Source: Squalus acanthias
Taxonomy: Eukaryota
NCBI GenBank assembly: GCA_030390025.1
Contig: CM059432.1
Coordinates: forward strand, 69,318,001 to 69,382,000
Length of the DNA stretch: 64,000 bases
Direction: 5' to 3'
The notes beneath the pieces are model-generated. The model was not told where the DNA came from. It ran no database searches and was given only the letters and a program-made list of their open reading frames with translations. Position numbers and translations under genes: made by a program. Below, in pieces: positions 845 through 63,423 of this stretch; the stretch's first letter is position 1, and every line of letters starts with the position of its first letter.

Positions 845-2557
845 TTATGATCTGAAATTGTTGAACTCGATATTGAATCCAGAAGGCTGTAAAGTGCCTA
901 ATCGGAAGATGAGGTGCTGTTCCTCGAGCTTACGTTGAGCTTCTGTGGAACAATGCACGAGGCCGAGGACGGTGAGGTCTGAGTGGGCGTGGAGAGGTGA
1001 ATTAAAATGACAAGCGACCGGAAGCTCGGGGTCACCCTTACAGACTGAACGGAGGTATTCCGCAAAGCGGTCACCCAATCTGCATTTGGTCTCCCCAGTG
1101 TAGAGGAGACCACACCGTGAGCAGCGAATACAGTATACTAGATTGGAAGAAGTACAAGTAAATCACTGTTTCACCTGGAAGGGGTGTTTGGGGCCCTGGA
1201 CAGTGGGAAGGGGGGAGGTATAAGGGCAGGTGTTGCATCTCCTGCGCTTGCACGGGAAGGTGCCGGGCGAGGGGGAAGGGGTGCTGGGGGTGATAGAGGA
1301 GTGGACTAGGGTGTCTCGGAGGGAGCGGTCCCTACGGAATGCTGAAAGGGGAGGTGAGGGGAAGATACGTTTGGTGGTGAGATCATGTTGGAGGTGGCGG
1401 AAATGGCGGAGGATGATCCGTTGAATGTGGAGTCAGGTTGGGTGAAAGGTGAGGACAAGGGGAACTCTAACGTGGTTCCGGGAGGGAGGGGCCGGGGTGA
1501 GGGCAGAAGTGCGGGAGATAGAACGGACACGGTCGAGGGCCGTGTCGATCACGGTAGAGGGGAATCCTCGGTTGAGGAAAAAGGAAGACATGTTGGAAGG
1601 TGGCATCGTCGGAGCAGATGCAGCGGAGACGGAGAAACTGGGAGAAGGGAATAGAGTCCTTACAGGAGGCGGGTGGGAGGAAGTGTAGTCCAGGTAGCTG
1701 TGGGAGTCAGTGGGCTTGTAGTGAATGTTGCTCAATAACCTATCCCCAGAGATGGAGACAGAGAAGTCGAGGAAGGGAAGGGAAGAGTCGGAGATGGACC
1801 ATGTGAAGGTGAGGGAAGGATGGAAATTGGAGGCAAAGTGAATGAAATTGTCTAGTTCAGGGCGAGAGCAGGAAACGGCACCGATACAGTCGTCAATGTA
1901 CCGGAAAAAGAGGTGAGGGAGGGGACCCGAGTAGGACTGGAACAAAGAGTGTTCCACATATCCCACGAAAAGGCAGGCATAGCTAGGACCCATGCGGGTA
2001 CCCATAGCAACACCTTTGATTTGAAGGAAATGAGTGGAGTCAAAGGAGAAGTTGTTCAATGTGAGAACAAGTTCAGCCAGGCGGAGGAGGGTGGCGGTGG
2101 ATGGGGACTGGTTGGGCCTCTGTTCAAGGAAGAAGCGGAGCGCCCTCAGGCCATCCTGGTGGGGGATGGAGGTGTAGAGGGATTGTATGTCCATGGTGAA
2201 AAGGAGGCGGTTGGGGCCAGGAAACTGGAAACTGTTAAAGTGGTGGAGGGCGTCAGAGGAATCGCGGATGTAGGTGGGAAGAGACTGGACAAGGGGAGAA
2301 AAAATAGAGTCGAGATAGGAAGAGATAAGTTCCGTGGGGCAAGAGCAGGCTGAAACGATGGGTCTACCAGGGCAGTCCTGTTTGTGGATCTTGGGAAGGA
2401 GGTAGAAGCGGGCTGTGCAGGGTTGGGGAACTATGAGGTTGGCGGCTGTGGGGGGAAGATCTCCAGAGGAGATGAGGTCAGTGACAATCTTGGAAACGGT
2501 GGCTTGATGTTCGGTAGTGGGGTCATGGTCCAAGTGGAGGTAGGAGGAGGTGTCGGA
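845..2557 (-). pseudogene. Penelope RT + GIY-YIG endonuclease ORF (frameshifted)
   Basis: RT motifs FYLLPKIHK..PGRPIVS, TMDIQSLYTSI, GVAMGTRMGP, FRYIDD; EN motif NLVYCIRCSRCGLLYTGETKCRLGDRFAEY..PVACHFN; C-terminus GTLQPSGFNIEF. Confidence 0.93.
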
Positions 2558-5994: not shown

Positions 5995-7975
5995 TAATAC
6001 AAAAGCAAAATACTGCGGAAACTGGAAATCTGAAATAAAAACAGAAAATGCTGGAAATACTCAGCAGGTCCGGCAGCATCTGTGAAGAGAGAAACAAAGT
6101 TAATGGGTTGGATTTTGCAGGGGATCAGTGGGCGTAATCGGTGGCGGGTCAGGTAGGAAAGCTTTTTTTCCCCCTGCGGGTCGGGACCCCGCTGTGAACC
6201 TGCCACCAATCACCTTTAACAAATGTTGGGTCTGTCAGCGTTGAGTAGACCTGACACGCAACGGCAGGGGAGGCAATTAAAATCATTAGTGTTTTGTTCC
6301 CCAGCTTTTTGGATTTGACAGATCGCCCACCAGTTTCTTGCTGTGCCTAGACCTCATCTGTGAAGCTGAGGCAGGAGGTCAGTGGCCATTGAATCAGCTG
6401 ATGAGTTGACAGCTTCAAATGTCAAGTCAATGCTCCCAGCTGATTAAGATATGTTCCCTTAACCATTAGCTTCTCTAAACTGCATTTCCACTACAGATTC
6501 AGGATGCTGCAAGTCTTTACCAAGTCTCCATCCAGTCTGACCTCATTACCTCTCCCACCCTTGACAGATCGCTTCTGTCATCTCTACTTCACCTGCCATC
6601 TATTCCATCAGCATGGGTGCCCTTGCAACTCTCTCACCTTGGTCCTCAGAATCCCACCACGATCAGCCCCAACACCAGCTTCACCAGGCACACCAGCAGC
6701 ACCAAGGACCAGCAACACCAACAACAACATCAACTTTCTCCACAATTAACTGATGCTGCACAGGACACAGGGCATCAACACCCGACCACATTGCTGCCCA
6801 GGAAGCCAGGGATGGCCTCACCATGGCCAGATTTACTTCACTTGTTGCTGTACACCCTGGCTGACACACGATGCGCCAGGTTGGCACCACCCCATACCAA
6901 CACCATAAAGCATCCTTACAATGCCCAAGCCATTCCTTTCACACTTATCACCATTGCGGTGGGTACCGTTATGTCTCACCAATCACTGAAACTCACTAAG
7001 CCACTTCCAAAGGTGCACAGAAATCTGTCCAAGAACGCAAAGTGTTGAAAATAAAGGTTTCAATGTTTGACACCACATTAACAGAAACTTTACATGAACA
7101 TTGGATAAAACACCCAAGTGCCTACCCTTGTGTGTTGTTAGTTGGTATGATTGCACTAGGATGAGGGTGAGTGTGAGGGGTGGCTAGTGAGATGGGGGAT
7201 GTGATAGTGTAGATGGAGAGGAATGGGTGGAGGTGCAAAGTAAGTTAGTGTAAGTAAGGATGTGCGGGAGTAGGGTAGGGAAGGCAGAGTGATGGGGATG
7301 TGATGAGAGGCACAGCAGGATGAGGTTGAGTGTGGCTTTGTACTAACGTTTTGTGATCTACTGAGATCATTGAAATGTTTGCGGCCATGCACCCAGGTCC
7401 TCCTGACCACATCCCTGCTTGTGCCCTCCTCTGCAATGTGCAACCAGGTTGCGTTGATCTCCTGGGGATGTCTCTTCTGCCCATGGGAAGGAAAGAGAAC
7501 CTCCCTGTGTGCTGTGACTCCCTCCATAAGCATATGGAAGGATTCATGGGAAAGCCTGGGTGCAGCCGTGCACCTCTGTGCAGTGATTGTCAGTGTTTGC
7601 AGCATCTCAATGCTGCAGAACACCGACAGCACAAATGTCAAGATAAAGTTGGCCATGGTCCCTTTAAGGAAACCGGCTGATGACAGGTCATCAAATGGTG
7701 TCACCAGACCCGCTTCCTCTAATTGGCCAGAAACGCATTGGGCGGGCTTAACAAGCCCAATCAATGGAAATTTATTTCAGAGGCCGGGATGGAGCCAGCA
7801 GCGGGGTCGGGACCCGCCACCGACATCGCCCGCCACGGACCCGTCGAGGTTCGTAAATCACGGCCAACGTTTCAAGTCGATGACCTTTCGACCTGAAACA
7901 TTAATTCTGTTTCTCTCTCCACAGATGCAGCCTGACCTGCTGAGTATTTCCAGCATTTTCTGTTTTTATTTCAGT
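5995..7975. mobile_element. Inverted pair of Penelope pLTR fragments (5995-6104, 7866-7975) split by a Harbinger derivative
   Basis: ctgaaataaaaacagaaaatgctggaaatactcagcagg.. and its reverse complement at 7900-7975; approximate TSD tcagttaaa(t/g)gg at 5983 and 7971. Confidence 0.8.
6105..7865. mobile_element. Internally deleted Harbinger (Myb exon on minus strand, transposase N-terminal remnant on plus strand)
   Basis: Diverged TIRs gggttggattttgc / cgtaaatcacggcc; 3-bp TSD aat/aac; Myb peptide AAPRLSHESFHMLMEGV..WLHIAEE..TWVHGRKHFNDL; Gln-rich segment at ~6700-6790 like the N-terminus of the transposase at 19916. Confidence 0.82.
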
Positions 7976-9790: not shown

Positions 9791-10375
9791 CTCACTTCTG
9801 AGTCAGAAGGCTGTGGGTTCAAGTCCCACTCATGAAACTTAAGCATGTGATCTAGGCTGACACTTGAGTGCTGCACTGAGGGAGTGCTGCACTGTCGGAG
9901 ATGCCGTCTTTCGGATGAGACGTTAAACTGATGCCCCGTCTGCTCTCTCAGGTGAATGTAAAAGATCCCATGGCACTATTTTGAAGAAGAGCAGGGGAGC
10001 TCTCCCCAGTGTCCTGGCCAATATTTATCCCTCAGCCAATATCACTAAAAAAACAAATGATCTAGTCATTATCACATTGCTGTTTGTGGGAGCTTGCTGT
10101 GTGCAAATTTGCTGCCACGTTTCCTACATTACAACAGTGACTAACTTCAAAAGTACTTAAATAACAACAGAAAATGCTGGAAAAATTCTGTTTCTCTCTC
10201 CACGGATGCTGCCTGGCCTGCTGAGTTTTTCCAGCGTTTTCTGTTGTTATTTCGGATTTCCAGCATCCACAGTATTTTGCTATCGTTCAAAAGTACTTAA
10301 TTGACTGTAAAACGCTTTGGGATGTCCTGAGGTCGTGAGAGGTGCACGTAAATGCAAGTCTATCTTTCTTTCTTT
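9791..10375 (+). mobile_element. Deu-domain SINE (SacSINE1-like) with L2-type tail, interrupted by a pLTR insert
   Basis: B-box gggttcaagtccc; Deu core gtctttcggatgagacgttaaac..aaagatcccatggcact..gtgtcctggccaa; tail aacgctttgggatgtcctgagg..aaatgcaagt. Confidence 0.85.
10161..10285. mobile_element. Penelope pLTR fragment with 5' inversion, 15-bp TSD
   Basis: TSD ttcaaaagtacttaa at 10146-10160 and 10286-10300; sequence matches pLTR at 441-505. Confidence 0.88.
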
Positions 10376-18688: not shown

Positions 18689-19916
18689 TTAAGCGAATCT
18701 GGCATGGATTAGTGCATCCCTTGCATCACGGCCAGCAATGTGCTCGCGTTCTCGTGGAACTAGCACATCCGCCTCCGCAAAATTATTCCTCCTCCTTCTC
18801 CTCCTCCTCCGAGGAGGAGGAGGCTGTGCGCTGAGCCACTTGTTCCTCAGGCTGCGGTAAGCCATGCTGCTGTGCGATGTTGTGCAGTGCACAGCAGACC
18901 ACGATGATTCTGGAGACCCTGGCTGGTGAGTACTCTAGGGCTCCGCCTGATCTGTCGATGCACCTGAATCGCATTTTGAGCAAGCCGATGGTTTGCTCGA
19001 TGATGGCTCTGGTGGAAATGTGGCTGGCATTGTAGCGCTCCTCAGCTTCGTTAGCTGGCCTCCTGATCGGCGTCATTAGCCATGTCTTCAGGGGATAGCC
19101 CTTGTCTCCAAGTAGCCATCCGGAAAGTTGGGTTGGCAGATTGAAGAGCTGAGGCACAGTAGACTGCCGCAGGATGAAAGAGTCATGATAACTGCCAGGG
19201 AACTTGGCGCAAACATGCATAATGTTCTTCCTGTGGTTACACATCAGCTGGACGTTAAGGGAGTGGAAGCCCTTGCGGTTCACAATTGCAGCTGGGTTGT
19301 GATGGGGTGCCCTAATGGCCACATGTGTGCAGTCTACGACGCCTTGCACCCTTGGCAAGCCTGCCATATTTGCAAAGCCAACCGCATGCGCAGTTACACT
19401 TGCTTCATCTGTGGAGAAGTGGATGTAATTGTGCGCCTTTGCAAAGAGGGCATCGGTAACCTGCGTGATGCAAGTGTGTGCGGCCGACTGGGAGATGCCG
19501 CTGATGTCTGCTGATGATCCCTGGAAGGACCCTGAAGCAAAAATATTGAGGGCGGTGGTGACTTTGACAGCCACTGGTTAGGAGTGTCCACCTGCTCCTC
19601 TGGGCTCCAGGTGTTGGTGCAGCATTGCGCAGATGTCAGCGACTACCTCTCGCGAAAGTCTCAGCCTCCTTTGGCACTGCTGCTCAGTCATGTTGAGGAA
19701 GCTCATCCTCGGCCTGCAAACCCTGTGTTGGGGGTATCTCCTGCGGCGACGTGCAGCCCTGCGCTGACGCCCTCTGCCCTGTACAGCATCAGGTGGGTGA
19801 GGAAAAGGTTGGCGCTCCTGTTGTTGCTGCTGCTGTTGTGCCTGGTTCTGCTGCTGCCGCGGCTGCTCTTCCTCCGATTCTGAGGACCAGGATGAGAGGA
19901 TATAAATGGTTCCCAT
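18689..19916 (-). pseudogene. Harbinger DDE transposase (HARBI1-like family); one stop and one frameshift
   Basis: Motifs [46 protein letters not shown]; in-frame TAA at 19578-19580; frameshift in acidic repeat at ~18790 before ..ARDALIHARFA*; minus-strand AATAAA at 18624-18629. Confidence 0.95.
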
Positions 19917-20665: not shown

Positions 20666-21822
20666 TCACTGGAATCGGAGTCCGATGAGGCATTCCCAGA
20701 GAGCTCATGCTGAAGGGGGATTTTCTGCCTGCCTCCTCCCTTCCTCCTCATCCTCCTTGTACTCCTCCTCTTCCTCTTACTCTTCCTCCTCCTCCTCTCC
20801 TTCGTCCTCTTCCTGAGGTGGTCCCGTAATCTCTGCTGGCAAGGGCTGCACCCTCATGATGGCCAAGTTGTGAAGCATGCAGCACACCCGCTCCACTGAG
20901 TACTGGAGCGTTCCTCCCGAGTGGTTGAGGCAGCAGGACTATTGTTTCAGCAGCCCGATGGTCTGCTCGATAATGTTCTTGGTGGCAACATGGTTCTCAT
21001 TATATGAGTACTTGGCACAAGTGGTGGGTTTGAGGAGGGGAGTCATCAGCCAGGTGCAGAGCGGATCGCCCCTGTCTCTGAGCAGCCACTCTTGGGTTTG
21101 ATGTGGTGGCTGGCAGATTGCTGGCACACCGGACTGCGGCAGGATGAAAGCATCATGACCGCTGCTTGGATAGCGGGCATTGACCATCAGGAAGCACTGG
21201 ACGTGGTCGCACAACAACTGCACATTAAGTGAGTGGTAGCCTTTGCGGTTACGGAAGATCTCAGGATTGTTATGCAGTGCCCGCAAAGCCACATGGGTGT
21301 AGTCGATGGCGCCCTGCACCATGGGGAAGCCTGCTATCCTGGCAAAGCCACATGCGCACTCCTGCTGAGAAAGAAGAAAACCTAGTCCCTTCTCCTAGTG
21401 TGGAGAGCCGCTGTGACCTCCTGGATGCAGCGATGGATGGCGAACTGGGAGATGTTAGTTATGACTCTTGCTGCAGACTGGAAGGATCCGCTGGCGAAGA
21501 AATTGAGGGCCATGGTGACCTTGAGGGCTACTGGGAGAGCCGTGGTCACCCTGCTCTCAGGTTGCAGGTCTGGTTGCAGGAGCTGGCAGAGTTCTGTGGC
21601 CACCTCCTTGCTGAAGCAGAGCCTCCTAATACACTGCTCCTCGCTTAAGTGAATATAAGAGAAGTGCCCTCAGAAGACCCTAGGTGGGTAAGGCTTCCTG
21701 GTGAGAGCCCTCCTGGCCCGCCTCCTCCTCCCTCTGCACGCATCTTCTCCTCTTCTTCACTGCCTCCGCTCCCTCTCCCTAAGATACTTGAGCGTAAGGG
21801 GGACTGCCAATAGAGCCCCCAT
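20666..21822 (-). pseudogene. Outer Harbinger DDE transposase, degraded
   Basis: [59 protein letters not shown]; several frameshifts. Confidence 0.92.
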
Positions 21823-37654: not shown

Positions 37655-37760
37655 TCCATCTTGGTGAAAGATCTACAACTGAAACATTTAGCTGCGTTTT
37701 CACTTTTCAGGTGCTTATGGGCCTGCTGTATATTTCTAACATTTTCTCCTTTTATTTCAA
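37655..37760 (+). mobile_element. Highly degenerate Penelope pLTR
   Basis: tgaaagatctacaactgaaacattta..gcctgctgtatatttctaacattttct..tttatttca. Confidence 0.5.
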
Positions 37761-38189
37761 TTCATGCTCTGTGCTGATCTTCATCAGAGCAATGATGGTA
37801 ACAGATGCCTGTCCCCAAGCAAAGAATGGGAAAATATTATAAATTGGGATGTTTCTGTTCCTGGACACCAGTCAGTGACCCCTCCATCGCCAGAAGTACT
37901 AGTGTGGATCCTGTGATGGAATAACTCACCGATATTTTCTTTCCAGGCTCAGGTTTAAAGAATGATCACTTCGGCGAATCACTGTGCTTCACATCATACT
38001 CCAACACGAATCTCACCTTCAAGAAAAAAGGGGTAAAGGGTTAAAATCATAGGGCAAACTGGAGAAAAAAAAACCTGAATGGAAGATTAGGTAGACTCTA
38101 GTCAGCAGGTGCACTGGTGTTATGATTTGCTGCATGTGCCTATCACAATCTCAACATTCCTTTCATGTGTAAGTCATTGAAGAAGTTAG

Positions 38190-39916: not shown

Positions 39917-40020
39917 TGAAATAAGAATAGAAAATGTTGGAAATACTCAGCAGGTCAGGCAGCATCTGTGGAGAGAGAAACAGAGTTAACGTTTCAGGTT
40001 GATGACCTTTCATCAGAACT
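39917..40020 (-). ncRNA. Solo Penelope pLTR with intact minimal hammerhead (39984-40020)
   Basis: agtt-CTGATGA-a-aggt-catca-acct-GAAA-cgt-t-aact; stem I 4 bp, palindromic stem III ACGU, GUU cleavage triplet. Confidence 0.82.
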
Positions 40021-40199
40021 GACACTGATACAGCCCCAAATACAAATTAGTCAGAAAAAGGTAAAGGCATTTGTTCCTGTGATTGAATAGGACACGCACA
40101 AGTGGTTTTGGGTCTTTGTGATGAAAAGTAAATGTTGTATACAGATTTTGTAAAAGTTCCAGTCAGCAAGTTTCTCAATGAAAATTGTCAATAGTATAC

Positions 40200-55393: not shown

Positions 55394-57022
55394 ACTTTGC
55401 ATCTGTCTTCAAGGAAGAAGACACAAAAAAATTCCCAAAATAGTGGGGAACCTAGAGTCTAGTGAGAATGAGGAACTTAAAGAAATTAGTATTAGTAAAG
55501 AAATAGTACTGGAGTGATTAATGGGACTTAAAGCCAATAAATCCCTTAGACCTGATGGCCTACATCTTAGGGTTTTAAAAGAAGTGTCTACAAGATACTG
55601 GATGCATTGGTTTTGATCTTCCAGAATTCCCCAGATTCTAGAACGGTCCCCACTGATTGAAAGGTATCAAATGTAACCCCGCTATTCAAAAAAGGAGGGA
55701 GAGAGAAAACAGGGAACTATAGACCAGTTAGCCTGACATCAGTAGTACGGAAAATGTTAGAATCTATTATTAGGGATGTAGTAACAGGGCACTTAGAAGT
55801 CAACACAGATTTATGAAAGGGAAATCATGTTTGACAAATCTGTTGAGTTTTTTGAGGTTGTAACTAACAGGGTAGATAAGGGGGAACCAGTGGATGTAGT
55901 GTATTTGGATTTTCAAAAAGCATTCGATAAGGTGCCACACAAGAGCTTCTTACACAAAATTAGAGCTCATGGGATTGGGGGTAATATATTAGCATTGATT
56001 GAGGATTGATTAACGGACAGAAAACAGAGAGTAGGTATAAATGGGTCATTTTCCGGTTGGCAGGCTGTAACTAGTGGGGTACCATAAGGAACAGTGCTTG
56101 GGCCTCAGCTATTTACAATCTATATCAATGACTTAGATGAGGGGATCAAGTGTAATGTATCCAAGTTTGCTGACGATACAAAGTTAGGTAGGAAAGTAAG
56201 TTCTGAGGAGGACTCACAGAGGCTGCAAAGGGATATAGACAGGTTAAGTGAGTGGGCAAGTACATGGCAGATGGAATCTAATGTGGAGAAATGTGAAGTT
56301 ATCCACTTTGGTAGGAAAAATAGAAAAGCAGAATATTTTTTAAATGGTGAGAGATTGGGAAATGTTGGTATTCAGAGGGACCTGGGTGTCCTTGTACACA
56401 AATCACTGAAAGTTAACATACAGGTACAGCAAGCAATTAGGAAAGCAATGGTATGTTAACCTTTATTGCAAAAGAATTGGAGTATAAGAGTAAAGAAGTC
56501 TTACTACAAATATATAGGGCTTTGATGAAACCACACCTGGAGTATTGTGTACAGTTTTGGTCTCCTTACCTAAGGAAGGATATACTTGCCTTAGAGATAG
56601 TGCAACAAAGGTTCACTGGACTGATTCCTGGGATGGGGGGTTGTCCTATGAGGAGAGATTGAGCAGACTAGGCCTATATTCCCATGAGTTATAAAAATGA
56701 GAGGGGATCTCATTGAAACGTATAAAATTCTTAAGGAGCTTGACAGGGTAGATGCTGGGAGGATGTTTCCCCTGGCTAGGGAGTCTAGAACTAGGGGTCA
56801 TAATCTCAGAATAAGGGGTCGGCAATTTAGGACTGAGATGAGGGGAAATTTCATCACTCATCGGGATGTGAAGTTTTGGAATTCTCTACCCCAGAGGGCT
56901 GTGGACGCCAGTCATTGAGTATATTCAAAGCAGAGATCGATAGAGTTTTGGATACTAAGGGAACCAAGGGATATGGGGATAGTGCGGGAAGGTGGAGTTG
57001 AGGTAGAAGATCAGCCATGATC

Positions 57023-57117
57023 CCGTCACTTCACCTGACGAAGGAGCAGCGCTCCGAAAGCTTGTGATTTCAAATAAAACTGTTGGACTATAACCTGGTG
57101 TTGTGCGACTTCTCACA
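57023..57117 (+). ncRNA. 95-bp pLTR mini-insertion containing an intact minimal hammerhead (57031-57067)
   Basis: tcac-CTGACGA-a-ggagc-agc-gctcc-GAAA-gc-tt-gtga; AATAAA at 57073; TSD atgatc at 57017 and 57118. Confidence 0.87.
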
Positions 57118-57429
57118 ATGATCTTATTGAATGGTGGAGCAGGCTCGAAGGGCCAAATGGCCTACTTCTGCTCCTATTTCTTATATGACATGGAGCCTCA
57201 CTGGCCAGGAGTGCAAAATCAGACACGGTGGCCTGAATGATGGATGCACAACGGACTGGGGTAAATAAGTTGATTCACTGTCTGGGCAGTAAACAATAGA
57301 ATAAAAATCAGGCAGGTTCTACAAAGGGCTTGCAAGCCTCTCTACCAGATTACCACCCAGGTGGTGGAGACAACAATTTAACCCACTATATTTTGCGGTG
57401 AAGAAATTTGCTGTTTATTTTGTTTCAAT

Positions 57430-58584: not shown

Positions 58585-59960
58585 TCGTAAAATCATAGAA
58601 ATTTACAGCACAGAAGGAGGCCATTCAGCCCATCTTGTCCGTGCCGGCCGACAAAGAGCTATCCACCCTAATCCCACTTTCCAGCACTTGGTCCGTAGCC
58701 TTGTAGGTTACGACACTTCAAGTGTATATCCAAGAAATGTTTAAATGTGATGAGCTTTTCTGCCTCTACCACCCTTTCAGGCAGTGAGTTCCAGACCCCC
58801 ACCCCCCTCTGGGTGAAAAAAATTCTCCTCAAGTCCCCTCTAAACTTCCTACCAATTACTTTAAATCTATGTCCCCTGGTTATTGACCCTTCTGCTAAGG
58901 GAAATAGGTCCTTCCTACCCACTCTATCTAGGTCCCTCATAATTTTATACACCTCAATTAGGTCTCCCCTCAGCCTCCTCTGTTCCAAAGAAAACAACCC
59001 CAGCCTATCCAATCTTTCCTCATAGGCAAAATTCCCCAGCCCAGGCAACATCCTCGTAAATCTCCTCTGCACCCTCTTTAGTGCAATCACATCCTTCCTG
59101 TAATGTGCTGACCAGAACTGCACGCAGTTCTGGTCATCTGCGGCCTAACTAGTGTTTTATACAGTTCAAGCATAACCTCCCTGCTCTTATATTCTATGCC
59201 TTGGCTAACAAAGGCAAGTATCCTGTATGCCTTCTTAGCCTCCTTATCTACCTGTCCTGCTACCTTCAGGGATCTGTGGACATACACTCCAAGGTCCCTC
59301 TGATCCTCTGCACTTCTCAGTGTCCTACCATTTATTGCGTATTCGCTTGCCTTATTAGCCCTCCCCAAATGCATTACCTCAAACTTCTCCAGATTGAATT
59401 CCATTTGCCACTGTTCTACCCACCAGACCAGTCCATTGATGTCTTCTTGCAGTCTACAGCTTTCTTCTTTATTATCAACCACACGGCCAATTTTTGTATC
59501 ATCTGCAAACTTCTTAATCATACTTCCTACATTCAAGTCCAAATCATTGATATATACCACAAAAAGCAAATGATCCAGTACTGAGCCCTGTGGAACCCCA
59601 CTGGAAACAGCCTTCCAGTCACAAAAACACCCTTCAACCATTACCCTTTGCTTCCTGCCTCTGAGCCAATTTTGGATCCAACTTGCCACTTTGCCCTGGA
59701 TCCCATGGGCTTTTACTTTCATGACCGGTCTGCCATGCGGGACCTTATCAAAAGCCCTGCTAAAATCCACATAGACTACATCAAACACACTACCCTCATC
59801 GACCCTCCTTGAGGAGGTATCCTCAAAAAATTCAATCAAGTTAGTCAGACACGACCTTCCTTAACAAATCCATGCTGACTGTCCCTGATTAATCCGTGTC
59901 TTTCTAAATGAAGATTTATCCTGTCCCTCAGAATTTTTTCCAATAATTTTCGTACCACCG
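58585..59960 (-). mobile_element. CR1 LINE RT-to-tail fragment
   Basis: [47 protein letters not shown]; (atagaa) tail. Confidence 0.93.
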
Positions 59961-60241
59961 AGAATATGGCTCCGATACTTATGGGGAGGCAGGGGAGGGT
60001 GAGGGGAAGGCCGGAAACGGCTGAAGAACCCAGCAAGGCCGGGGAAATGGATGTCCTGCCGATCATATCAACATAAAAATTAGGAGCAGGAGCAGGTTCG
60101 AGGGGCCGTATGGCCTACTCCTGCTCCTAATTGTTATGTTCTTACATTCTTATGATGCGGAGATGCCGGTGTTGGACTGGGGTGGACAAAAATGAGAAGT
60201 CGCACAACACCAGGTTATAGTCCAACAGTTTTATTTAAAAT

Positions 60242-60276
60242 TACGAGCTTTCGGAGCTCTGCTCCTTCTTCAGGTA
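60242..60276 (-). ncRNA. Minimal type I hammerhead ribozyme motif (inverted copy)
   Basis: Exact reverse complement of 60309-60343. Confidence 0.82.
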
Positions 60277-60308
60277 CAGTGAGGGATTGTATTCCCTCAC
60301 TGTACCTG

Positions 60309-60343
60309 TACCTGAAGAAGGAGCAGAGCTCCGAAAGCTCGTA
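60309..60343 (+). ncRNA. Minimal type I hammerhead ribozyme motif
   Basis: tac-CTGAAGA-a-ggagc-aga-gctcc-GAAA-gc-tc-gta. Confidence 0.82.
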
Positions 60344-61382
60344 ATTTTAAATAAAACTGTTGGACTATAACCTGGTGTTGTGCGACTTCTCATTTTTTAC
60401 ATTCTTATGACCTCATTAACATTTCTTAACTCTGTTTCCCACCCAGCAGCCAACCAAATAGACAGCCTGGCCGGTGGGCAGGAGGGAACACCAGAGGCAG
60501 GAGGCCGCAGCCAGATACCCTTTGAGATGGTCCCCGGCAATTGGGAGTTGGAGAGTCCGGGCAATCAGGGAGGGCTGGTTGGAGGTTGCCAGTTGGGGCT
60601 GGAGGGAGGTCAGCAATTAGAGCTGGGGCTTTGAAGGGAGGCTGGCGCTCAGGCCTGAGGGAGGCAGAAGGCTTCCTTGAGGGGCCGGGGGGAGCACTCC
60701 TGCTCTCCCTAGTGCTGAAAAAGGCCTTTACCTTGTGGAGTCAACAGCTCCCGCCTCTCTTTCACTGCTGAGTTTCCTGATCCCTGGGAAACTTGTGCAG
60801 CAGATCAATTTTAAATCGGGCTCCCAATTACACTGTGATTTAAATATATTAATTAAGTGTTCCTCCTCTCCACAGCCACCCCAATATCCACTGTGATAAA
60901 AAAGGTGACGGGCTCGTATGCAGTGTGTTGGGGTCGCGTTTCCCATATTTCATTTTTAACAGGCAGGAAAGGGTCGGGTGGGGGCAACTAGCGCGGCCTA
61001 TATATTTGTTGGCATTTGATGCATCACGTTCCTAGGGATTTCCTATTCTTTAAACCCATCCCACCATAATGGATGAGCATGGAAATGTACATCATGCTCA
61101 CAGTCTTAACTTTTATTCCTTCCTTTAGGTCCCATTGGACACGCACCAATTCCTCAAGAAGGCAGAGAGATGACCTGATGCCAGGACTCAGTCACTGCCA
61201 CTTTATGACCAGTTCTTCGAGAACTTCACTATTTTAGAACAAATTTGTCATAGTAAACATAATCTGAAATAAGAACCCTTTACTGATCTTTATTTTCTTC
61301 AATAGGTGACAGGGCAGCAGATCCAGAAATATACGCTTCTCAAAGTAACTTGCACTGAGCCTTGCCACGTGAGTGACATAAT

Positions 61383-62145
61383 GGCCCAGAAATTAAACAT
61401 GGATGGTTCCCGCGGGGGTAAGGATTCCCCGCGATATCGCACTCTGCGCCTACCTTTTTGCTCCGGGCCCACACGAACTTTAGTTTCAAAGGCCCTCTCT
61501 GTTGGAACCGTGCAGTGCTTGCGTGACCCAGAGGCGCAATTAGTTCGTGCGAGCTCTGGGATCACGTGATTCAGTTAGAGCCAATGGCAGCACACCATCT
61601 TTCATTCATAGTTTTGACGGCAAGCGCTGTCAAAGCTATGAATACTACACACCCCCAAAAGAACAGCTAAACCTCAATTAAATTTAAAAAAAGCCATCAC
61701 ATTAATAAAATAAGTATAGTTAAATAAATTAACCACTTTAAACAAAAAATAAAATTTTTGAAAAAATGTAAAATCTTTTTAAAAGTTGTAAAAATAAACT
61801 TACCTTTCTTTAAAGTCTCTAAAAAAGATAAACCTGTTGAAATTTTTTTTAAATAACACTTAATTAACTACTTACCTTGTTAAAAGGGGGTCCTATGCCT
61901 GCTTTCTTTGTGTATAAAATCTTCACCACTTACCTGCGCGTTCAAAGCTGAAAAAAAAACTAAGTGCACTGCGTGCGCACAGCCTGTAGTGCGCACGCGG
62001 TTCACTTAGGAACCGCCCCCTTTTCAATTCACGAAGTGCCGGTTTCCCGCGCATGCGCAGTGCATGCAGGAAACCGGCAATTCGGGATCTAATACGCGAG
62101 AGTACACAGTGCGTACTCTCGCGTATTAGGTTTAATTTTCGGGCC
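61383..62145. mobile_element. Harbinger-type MITE, copy 1
   Basis: TIR ggcccagaaattaaac / gtttaattttcgggcc; AAT TSD. Confidence 0.85.
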
Positions 62146-62656: not shown

Positions 62657-63423
62657 GGGCCAGAAATTTGGTTTTCCGGCTTCCTGCGGGTGCAAGCATC
62701 GCGCACGTACTTACCTACCGAGCCTGCCGTTGTGTTTTGGGCCCATGAGAACTTCGGGTCCTGGGCCTCCTCCAGCTGCCGGCGCGCAGTGCTTGCGTGT
62801 CCCAGGGGCGCAGTTAGTTCGAAGTGTCCCCTGGGATCACGTGGGCCATGCATGGAGAGCCAATCCTAGCAGGCCATTTTCATTCATCGATTTGACAGGA
62901 AGACCTGTCAAATCTATGAATTGAAATCGGCCCCAAAACAACACCTAAACTTCAAATAAATTTAACAAAAAACATCACATTTTTAAAATAACTATAAGTT
63001 AAATAAATTAACTACTTTAAACAAAAATTTAAATTTTTGAAAAAATTGAAATACTTTTTAACGGTGCTAAAAATAAACTTACCTTTCTTTAAAGTATCTA
63101 AAAAAGATAAACCTGTTGAAAATTTTTTAAATTGTAATTAATTAACCACTTACCTTGTTAAAAACGGGTCTTGCGCCTTCTTTTTAAAAGCGCAGCTTCT
63201 TCCATACTTACCTTCCCGGAGAAATCTGAAAAAAAAATGAAGTTCGCTGCGTGCGCGCAGCCTCTCTCGCGCACGCGGTTCACCTCTGAACCCCTCCCTT
63301 CACGAGACCGGAAGTTCCGGTTTCCCGCGCATGCGCAGTGCATGCAGGAAACCGGCACTTCAAGTGGCCTTACGGGTGAGTACACAGCGCGTACTCACCC
63401 GACAAGCGCCAAATTTCTGGGCC
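62657..63423. mobile_element. Harbinger-type MITE, copy 2 (related subfamily, same orientation)
   Basis: TIR gggccagaaatttgg / ccaaatttctgggcc; collinear with 61383-62145. Confidence 0.85.

Follow-up and report, generated by a model that had tools for sequence, protein, structure and literature searches.

What made the insertion at 60142–60410, where two mirrored arms with a hammerhead motif on each strand lie between short TSDs, and can such a pair cut itself or move as a unit? An earlier note on this DNA had described a palindrome of about 240 bp with an intact hammerhead, and had left two options for its origin, a one-off integration product or a non-autonomous ribozyme retroelement. We analysed the locus within the window, by which we mean the whole 64-kb stretch of DNA. 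Our results point strongly to a young, heavily 5′-truncated insertion of an endonuclease-bearing PLE that consists of two head-to-head 3′ parts of the pLTR, with the inversion made at integration. The features of the locus are as follows.

60070–60155, plus strand: host repeat, a 65-bp CR1-type 3′ stub (60089–60155) whose 5′ side bears an inverted piece of 27 bp (60070–60096)
60142–60155, plus strand: left TSD, 14 bp, the end bases of the CR1-type 3′ tail
60156–60187, minus strand: 32-nt PLE "tail" extending the pLTR at its 3′ end, AC-rich in the sense orientation, found in the left arm alone and without a right-arm partner; its very high depth in all four read runs marks it as family sequence, and one-sided tails of 30–40 nt are described in PMC8557442 and PMC3846280
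60188–60286, minus strand: left pLTR arm, sense on the minus strand
60242–60276, minus strand: minimal type I hammerhead motif whose core starts at 60273 and whose cut is predicted to follow 60245
60230–60235, minus strand: AATAAA, mirror of that at 60350–60355
60271–60308, no strand: 38-bp junction palindrome (16 nt, 6-nt loop, 16 nt), found once in the window when up to 3 mismatches are allowed
60293–60397, plus strand: right pLTR arm with the plus strand as sense; its tail-less end boundary is shared by the copy at 57024–57117 and by 7 of 15 listed joints
60300–60311, plus strand: 6-nt tandem unit, twice in the right arm and once in the left; the right-arm version has high depth in the window's organism and begins two joints from other loci
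60309–60343, plus strand: minimal type I hammerhead motif with a stem I of 3 bp, a stem II of 5 bp and a palindromic AGCU replacing stem III, predicted cut after C60340
60350–60355, plus strand: AATAAA, a family feature also present in the 57024–57117 copy
60397–60410, plus strand: right TSD, 14 bp, sharing its first base with the arm end

An inverted-repeat search resolved the palindrome into outer arms of 92 nt (60188–60279 with 60306–60397) and inner arms of 16 nt (60271–60286 with 60293–60308), both 100% complementary, with a 6-nt loop at 60287–60292 between the inner ones. The outer pair, spanning 60188–60397, is by far the longest among the 21 inverted pairs (at least 18 nt, within 400 bp) of the 64-kb window. 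By alignment the left arm has 99 nt and the right arm 105 nt and they differ by one 6-nt tandem unit, so the search and the alignment agree with the earlier description of arms of about 99 bp that are complementary save for a 6-nt duplication. There were no mismatches among the 108 paired arm positions (95% upper bound 2.7%), and the insert at 60156–60396 looks like the youngest member of the local repeat nest. The claimed TSD of 14 bp is exact (60142–60155 and 60397–60410), with the match failing at 15, and 11 of its 14 bases are A or T. Without the TSDs the insert measures 241 bp. The arms are indeed perfect, but the palindromic part is 210 bp only (60188–60397); the remaining 32 bp (60156–60187) are an unpaired extension of the left arm that the figure of about 240 bp had overlooked. 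Stops occur in all six frames across the 241-bp insert and no long ORF was found in it, in line with the statement that it encodes no protein.

The insert sits at the extreme end of the CR1-type 3′ stub, of which the 64-kb window holds four more copies. A longer stub copy at 56700–57184 translates to a C-terminal stretch of ORF2, and from its motifs we take the LINE stub (60089–60155; 56700–57184) to be CR1. Placing the TSD in a CR1 tail microsatellite was thus partly right: the target is the end of a CR1-type 3′ stub, but the tail is short and degenerate and TRF listed no tandem array there. The stub at 60070–60140 is itself a hairpin, its 27-bp inverted piece being 93% complementary. An RT fragment (59090–59860) lies to the left of the stub and another dispersed repeat to the right, making the locus a nest of repeats, of kinds that suggest a cartilaginous fish. 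Elsewhere in the window we noted a cluster of short hairpins (61960–62129 and 63296–63376) with arms of 20–33 nt, one of them repeated 1.3 kb away, which are perhaps the ends of a DNA transposon. There are also ORFs resembling Myb/SANT and DDE_Tnp_4 (7159–7776, 18786–19577 and 20942–21394, minus strand), which would be consistent with pieces of Harbinger-type transposons.

This anatomy matches the published signature of PLEs point by point. PLE insertions described in PMC8557442 have an adjacent inverted 5′-truncated copy, a one-sided tail of 30–40 bp and a bias toward microsatellites. The head-to-head pLTRs described in PMC3846280 have junction palindromes of 18 and 38 bp, a 31-bp tail and TSDs of 8–10 bp. 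The identity is read here from the anatomy of the pLTR, in an insert that has no ORF and with no autonomous partner of this family seen, and on this basis we hold it to be very probable. The TSD, the one-sided tail, the junction palindrome and the core in each arm all bear out the proposal in the earlier note that these are inverted Penelope pLTRs with minimal type I hammerheads.

A second copy of the same family lies at 57024–57117, within a CR1-type 3′ end. It is a single arm without a tail, has a 6-bp TSD and is 92–94% identical. This copy and the arms at 60286 and 60293 begin, to within 1–2 nt, at the same point, which lies some 14 nt upstream of the core at a TCACT resembling an initiator. 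Such a start could mark a defined 5′ end of the RNA, although it is seen at two loci only and the listed joints show other 5′ ends; an initiator-like motif is noted in a rotifer pLTR in PMC3846280. Both family copies in the window are in CR1-type 3′ ends (60129–60155 and 57017–57022). Eight of the 15 listed joints in the read data described below link the pLTR to a 16-bp stretch of CR1 tail as compared to one that links it to a 260-bp LINE stretch, a count in which only targets inside the aligned stretch are visible. A target bias for CR1-type tails is possible, as a post hoc idea.

The window also provides an internal control in the form of a second pLTR family with six copies. The insertion at 10146–10300 has a 15-bp TSD, a tail-less inverted arm of 30 nt and a tailed sense arm that is truncated past the hammerhead. 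Its arms are separated by 34 nt and differ at 2 of 30 positions. This is the same layout in a copy lacking the hammerhead, and it follows that the inverted layout arises with variable truncation and does not need the ribozyme. On the minus strand, 441–2557 is a 5′-truncated PLE of the second family that comprises an RT ORF, a GIY-YIG-like stretch and, downstream of these, its pLTR (441–542). pLTRs of this build thus belong to PLEs. The parts of this element and the further copies are listed here.

1436–2557, minus strand: RT ORF (Pfam E 3.2e-6, 27.4 versus 29.6 bits, under the cut-off)
848–1162, minus strand: GIY-YIG-like stretch after an in-frame stop (Pfam E 0.0072, 17.0 versus 22.6 bits, under the cut-off)
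7866–7970, 5995–6103, 37662–37790 and 39920–40022: further pLTR pieces of the second family

The PLE at 441–2557 has a Cys-rich linker resembling that described for the Neptune/Nematis clades, and its PLE-like RT had no match among solved structures. In the hammerhead at 536, stem III has lost its palindrome and stem I is mostly gone. The piece at 7866–7889 is a short inversion inside a second-family hammerhead, and the motif at 40016 (minus strand) is complete with a palindromic ACGU. A TSD search gave no convincing TSD for the copies at 441, 7866, 37662 and 39920.

We then considered the hammerhead motif. As the earlier note had reported, there is a motif followed by AATAAA on each strand, and we located the cores, the C17 residues and the AATAAA at mirrored positions. 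The cores start at 60312 (plus strand) and 60273 (minus strand) and point outward from the centre, with the predicted C17 at 60340 and 60245, respectively. In both, stem I has 3 bp, the first box is followed by an extra A, a G–C pair closes the 5 bp of stem II, a palindromic AGCU stands in for stem III and the cleavage site is a C. The core features of minimal hammerheads are present, namely the core boxes, the extra base after position 9, G10.1–C11.1, palindromic 15.1–16.1 and an H17 that is not G. A minimal-hammerhead descriptor, built from the features given in PMC4209133 but after the motif had been seen, matched three times in the 64-kb window compared to no matches in 200 of 200 dinucleotide shuffles. 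The core is invariant in all five aligned motifs. Stem I has a U–A pair in the 60142–60410 copy where the 57035 copy has C–G, which is one compensatory change among few independent copies. At least four read variants fall within the motif among those listed (N7, loop II, H17 and stem I 1.3), with 51 further variant rows besides.

Calling the hammerhead intact holds for the catalytic core, but stem I has only 3 bp and the monomer has no stem III. The check with covariance models that the earlier note had proposed came out negative: the Rfam hammerhead models gave no match at E ≤ 10 in 59500–61000 (23 matches) or in the single arm (2 matches). A motif without stem III may simply lie outside these models. 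We also tried a microRNA precursor as a candidate and rejected it, the best Rfam matches (84/200 and 49.2/93 bits) being below the gathering score and arising from the hairpin shape only.

The earlier note had supposed that the RNA could either cleave itself or fold into a long hairpin. The hairpin on read-through stands, with a predicted MFE for the full insert of –189.0 kcal/mol on the plus strand and –180.7 kcal/mol on the minus strand. The choice does not, because the head-to-head arrangement means that read-through from either side makes the antisense arm before the ribozyme, and because forcing the hammerhead fold (–140.4 kcal/mol) costs about 49 kcal/mol relative to the hairpin. For each of four transcript lengths, the predicted equilibrium probability of stem II is about 4e-18. 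The right arm on its own also prefers other folds in the secondary-structure model, with a stem II probability of 0.003. Nor can the second motif serve as the dimer partner, since on that same RNA it is antisense. Folding also predicts a long-range stem that joins pLTR and tail, which does not reach significance (z –0.82 and –1.44; –0.73 and –2.17 in the second family).

Read-through RNA would thus be expected to fold as a hairpin of about 100 bp with the ribozyme trapped in it. For cleavage, a transcript would have to be initiated at the centre, a second molecule would have to complete stem III at AGCU, and PLE protein would probably be needed as well. As a comparison, minimal hammerhead monomers are inactive and dimers weak in PMC4209133, cleavage is reported for 1 of 9 Xenopus dimer elements and none for the other 8 in bioRxiv 2026.07.22.740005, and in the assays described in PMC11167929 hammerhead cleavage was seen only with protein and was unnecessary for insertion. 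One hammerhead occurs in every pLTR, so an inverted pair has one per strand, and the two motifs would be passengers of the pLTR pair.

These considerations also bear on whether the insertion is a functional RNA switch that toggles between self-cleavage and a Dicer/ADAR substrate, or a source of dsRNA that the host uses to seed silencing of the family. The perfect hairpin of about 100 bp that read-through from both sides is predicted to give would suit such a role, and rotifer PLEs yield antisense small RNAs (PMC3846280). However, neither the energies nor the order of synthesis gives a toggle, the monomers are inactive and most dimers uncut in the studies just cited, and this is a young insertion among nested repeats with no sign of conservation and with zero depth right of the loop in the run from another organism. 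We consider a functional role very unlikely. Formation of dsRNA by read-through is plausible from the folding model and, if perfect hairpins are common in the genome, they could be a source of dsRNA directed against the pLTR family.

To learn how the family behaves at other loci, we used read contigs from four of 24 listed runs, aligned to 59700–60335 at 85% likeness. Three runs (X1, X5 and X7) are from the window's organism (organism A) and one (X19) is from organism G. The aligned stretch takes in the left flank, the tail, the left arm and the centre; other copies of the family dominate the contigs, in which neither this locus as such nor an empty site appeared, and summed contig depth is not a copy number. 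In X1 the summed depth was up to 5.7 million over the arm and 15–22 in the flank where repetition is least. Clearly the arm is a highly abundant repeat, in the organism of X19 as well. At least nine arm variants, among those listed, occur at 10–51% of the depth in X1, showing that the family is polymorphic. The variants carried by the 60142–60410 copy (60237, 60242, 60245 and 60294–60335) are common in organism A and nearly absent in X19, which points to a young lineage-specific subfamily. In X7, presumed to be an RNA run, the locus-specific flank was uncovered and the run is uninformative on expression. A conserved 22-nt arm motif had no exact match in collections of metagenomes, viral genomes and prokaryotic genomes, where a repeat of vertebrates would not be expected. 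Literature searches, whose scope did not extend to repeat libraries, found no publication devoted to this pLTR family.

The contigs contain 74 joints in all. Among the 15 listed, 7 join the tail-less boundary (60189–60193) to other flanks and 8 involve CR1-tail positions 60129–60144. Three of the 15 are inversions with other centres, each in one contig: the joint from 60213 to 60302 is unambiguously head-to-head, and those of 60228 with 60265 and 60187 with 60257 link opposite strands with the direction not given. Relative to the arm, the depth just left of the loop was 1.9% in X1, 0.35% in X5 and 0.2% in X7, an amount that is explained if the arm edge runs on for 5–9 of 22 positions. In the bin right of the loop, depth was 104k, 91k and 576 in these runs and zero in X19. 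The leader that includes the 6-nt tandem seems to mark a lineage-specific subfamily, and the listed joints from two other loci begin within it, at 60301 and 60302. The centre at 60271–60308 is at most a small minority form, where the depth bound still permits hundreds to thousands of copies.

These data do not favour the proposal of a non-autonomous ribozyme retroelement. The depth at the centre is at most 0.2–1.9% of arm depth in three runs and other copies have other junctions, which leaves room for a small subfamily sharing the centre; a one-off integration product is the favoured option of the two. If the palindrome itself were a mobile non-autonomous unit, or were copied whole from a master locus, its centre should recur at many loci. 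The clean TSD and young age fit with this, and the leader right of the loop, with a depth of about 1e5 in X1 and X5 and none in X19, shows that a lineage-specific subfamily shares at least that side. Moreover, pLTRs alone can be mobilised in trans (PMC3846280). Nonetheless, most leader-bearing contigs stop short of the mirror arm, as seen in X5 where depth is 26.8k left of the loop, under a third of the 91.1k to its right. The transcript would be a hairpin of about 100 bp and, by analogy with the Anolis RNA, which needs about 60 nt past the RT start site (PMC11167929), a copy that ends at the tail would be lacking a required part. We regard a mobile palindrome as improbable. A specific form of it, to which we give slightly less credence, is that a lineage-specific subfamily exists in which the exact 241-bp head-to-head unit is copied whole by PLE protein in trans, with the hairpin silencing both hammerheads until the protein or a centre-initiated transcript frees them. 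If true, the 241-bp palindromic unit would represent a class I element of MITE-like kind, separate from the tandem retrozymes.

The contigs raise one more possibility, an assembly or library artefact such as a fold-back chimera, since no listed contig spans the whole stretch or crosses both junctions. Against this, the mirror ends at element boundaries and is framed by the 14-bp TSD, the arms are asymmetric in the tail and the 6-nt unit, the loop of the central palindrome is non-palindromic, and a second family in the window has the same layout. An artefact is therefore extremely unlikely.

Returning to an insertion by a PLE, the route by which both arms were made can be outlined. The steps are inferred by analogy with an Anolis PLE studied in vitro, what is observed here being the anatomy and the family pattern. 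Acting on AT-rich DNA, the protein of that vertebrate PLE makes nicks in both strands and extends them, and the tail is delimited by two RT start sites (PMC11167929). At the present locus the GIY-YIG endonuclease of an autonomous partner would have cut the AT-rich end of the CR1 tail with a 14-nt stagger. Primed by the 3′ end of the top strand, reverse transcription would then have begun at the outer start site and produced the left arm together with its tail; the top strand at the left arm is antisense, as would be expected of a first cDNA. The mirror arm would have been made in the same event, ending at the inner, tail-less start site. An inversion inherited from the source copy is unlikely.

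For the mirror arm we slightly favour twin priming, at about even odds, in which the second nick would prime at the inner site and the two short cDNAs would be joined at their ends. This accounts for the asymmetry of the tail, for single-arm copies in which the tail-less end recurs and for an inherited 6-nt tandem on one arm. Against it, the arms are identical (108 of 108 pairs) in a polymorphic family and both stop at the same nucleotide around the 6-nt loop, which fits better with fold-back. In that case the tailed first cDNA would prime itself at its 3′ end and be copied to the tail boundary, and the endonuclease would resolve the hairpin, as in the self-priming model of PMC3846280, where junction palindromes are read in this way. 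Fold-back does not by itself explain why copying ended precisely at the tail boundary, an end also seen in the single-arm copy at 57024–57117. It also needs a later deletion in the left arm, given that the 6-nt tandem of the right arm seems to be inherited, judging from its depth in organism A and the joints at 60301 and 60302. If the stub is a PLE insertion, we tentatively give fold-back somewhat under an even chance.

Whichever route made the mirror arm, the stub is a clean fossil of PLE integration, and a tailed and a tail-less arm from one event are what priming at two sites on two strands would leave. If such young stubs were compared across the genome for arm identity, centre position and TSD length, twin priming could be told from fold-back, a point left open in what PMC11167929 describes. 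The stub itself was probably dead on arrival. It should be noted that pLTRs alone mobilised a host gene in trans in PMC3846280, so that a unit without an ORF need not be dead.

Compared with known systems, the 60142–60410 insertion is one more copy of a known PLE insertion pattern. It is similar to the EN+ PLE insertions Pen2a, Pen2 and Pen3a of Adineta vaga (PMC3846280; scheme in PMC8557442), which also have head-to-head pLTRs, a short TSD and an AT-rich simple-repeat target. The junction palindrome is 38 bp both here and in Pen3a, and the one-sided tail is 32 nt here and 31 in Pen2a (PMC3846280). Unlike the rotifer examples described in that study, the stub retains no ORF or second direct pLTR, its TSD is 14 bp rather than 8–10 bp, and its host is a vertebrate. 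The predicted motif shares with the metazoan PLE minimal hammerheads of PMC4209133 the type I core, the extra base between positions 9 and 10.1, G10.1–C11.1 and palindromic bases for stem III. Its stems II and I are 5 and 3 bp long, whereas those given for Schistosoma in PMC4209133 are 7–8 and 4–5 bp. Pairs of hammerheads on opposite strands were described in Schistosoma in 2014 (PMC4209133); these are 100–700 bp apart and the cores here are about 40 bp apart. Non-LTR retrozymes (bioRxiv 2026.07.22.740005) are likewise non-coding, derived from pLTRs and equipped with a type I hammerhead. However, they are described there as head-to-tail units of the same sense with a hammerhead in each, whereas the stub is a single head-to-head pair from which no unit can be released by two cuts on the same strand. 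We tried a non-LTR retrozyme as a candidate identity and ruled it out, there being no tandem array at the locus and the motifs being on opposite strands. Lastly, the Poseidon element PAc of Anolis carolinensis (PMC11167929), which we compared by anatomy, is autonomous and has been assayed, unlike the stub, but it too has two recurrent 3′ ends that delimit an AC-rich tail downstream of the hammerhead, and an AT-rich target.
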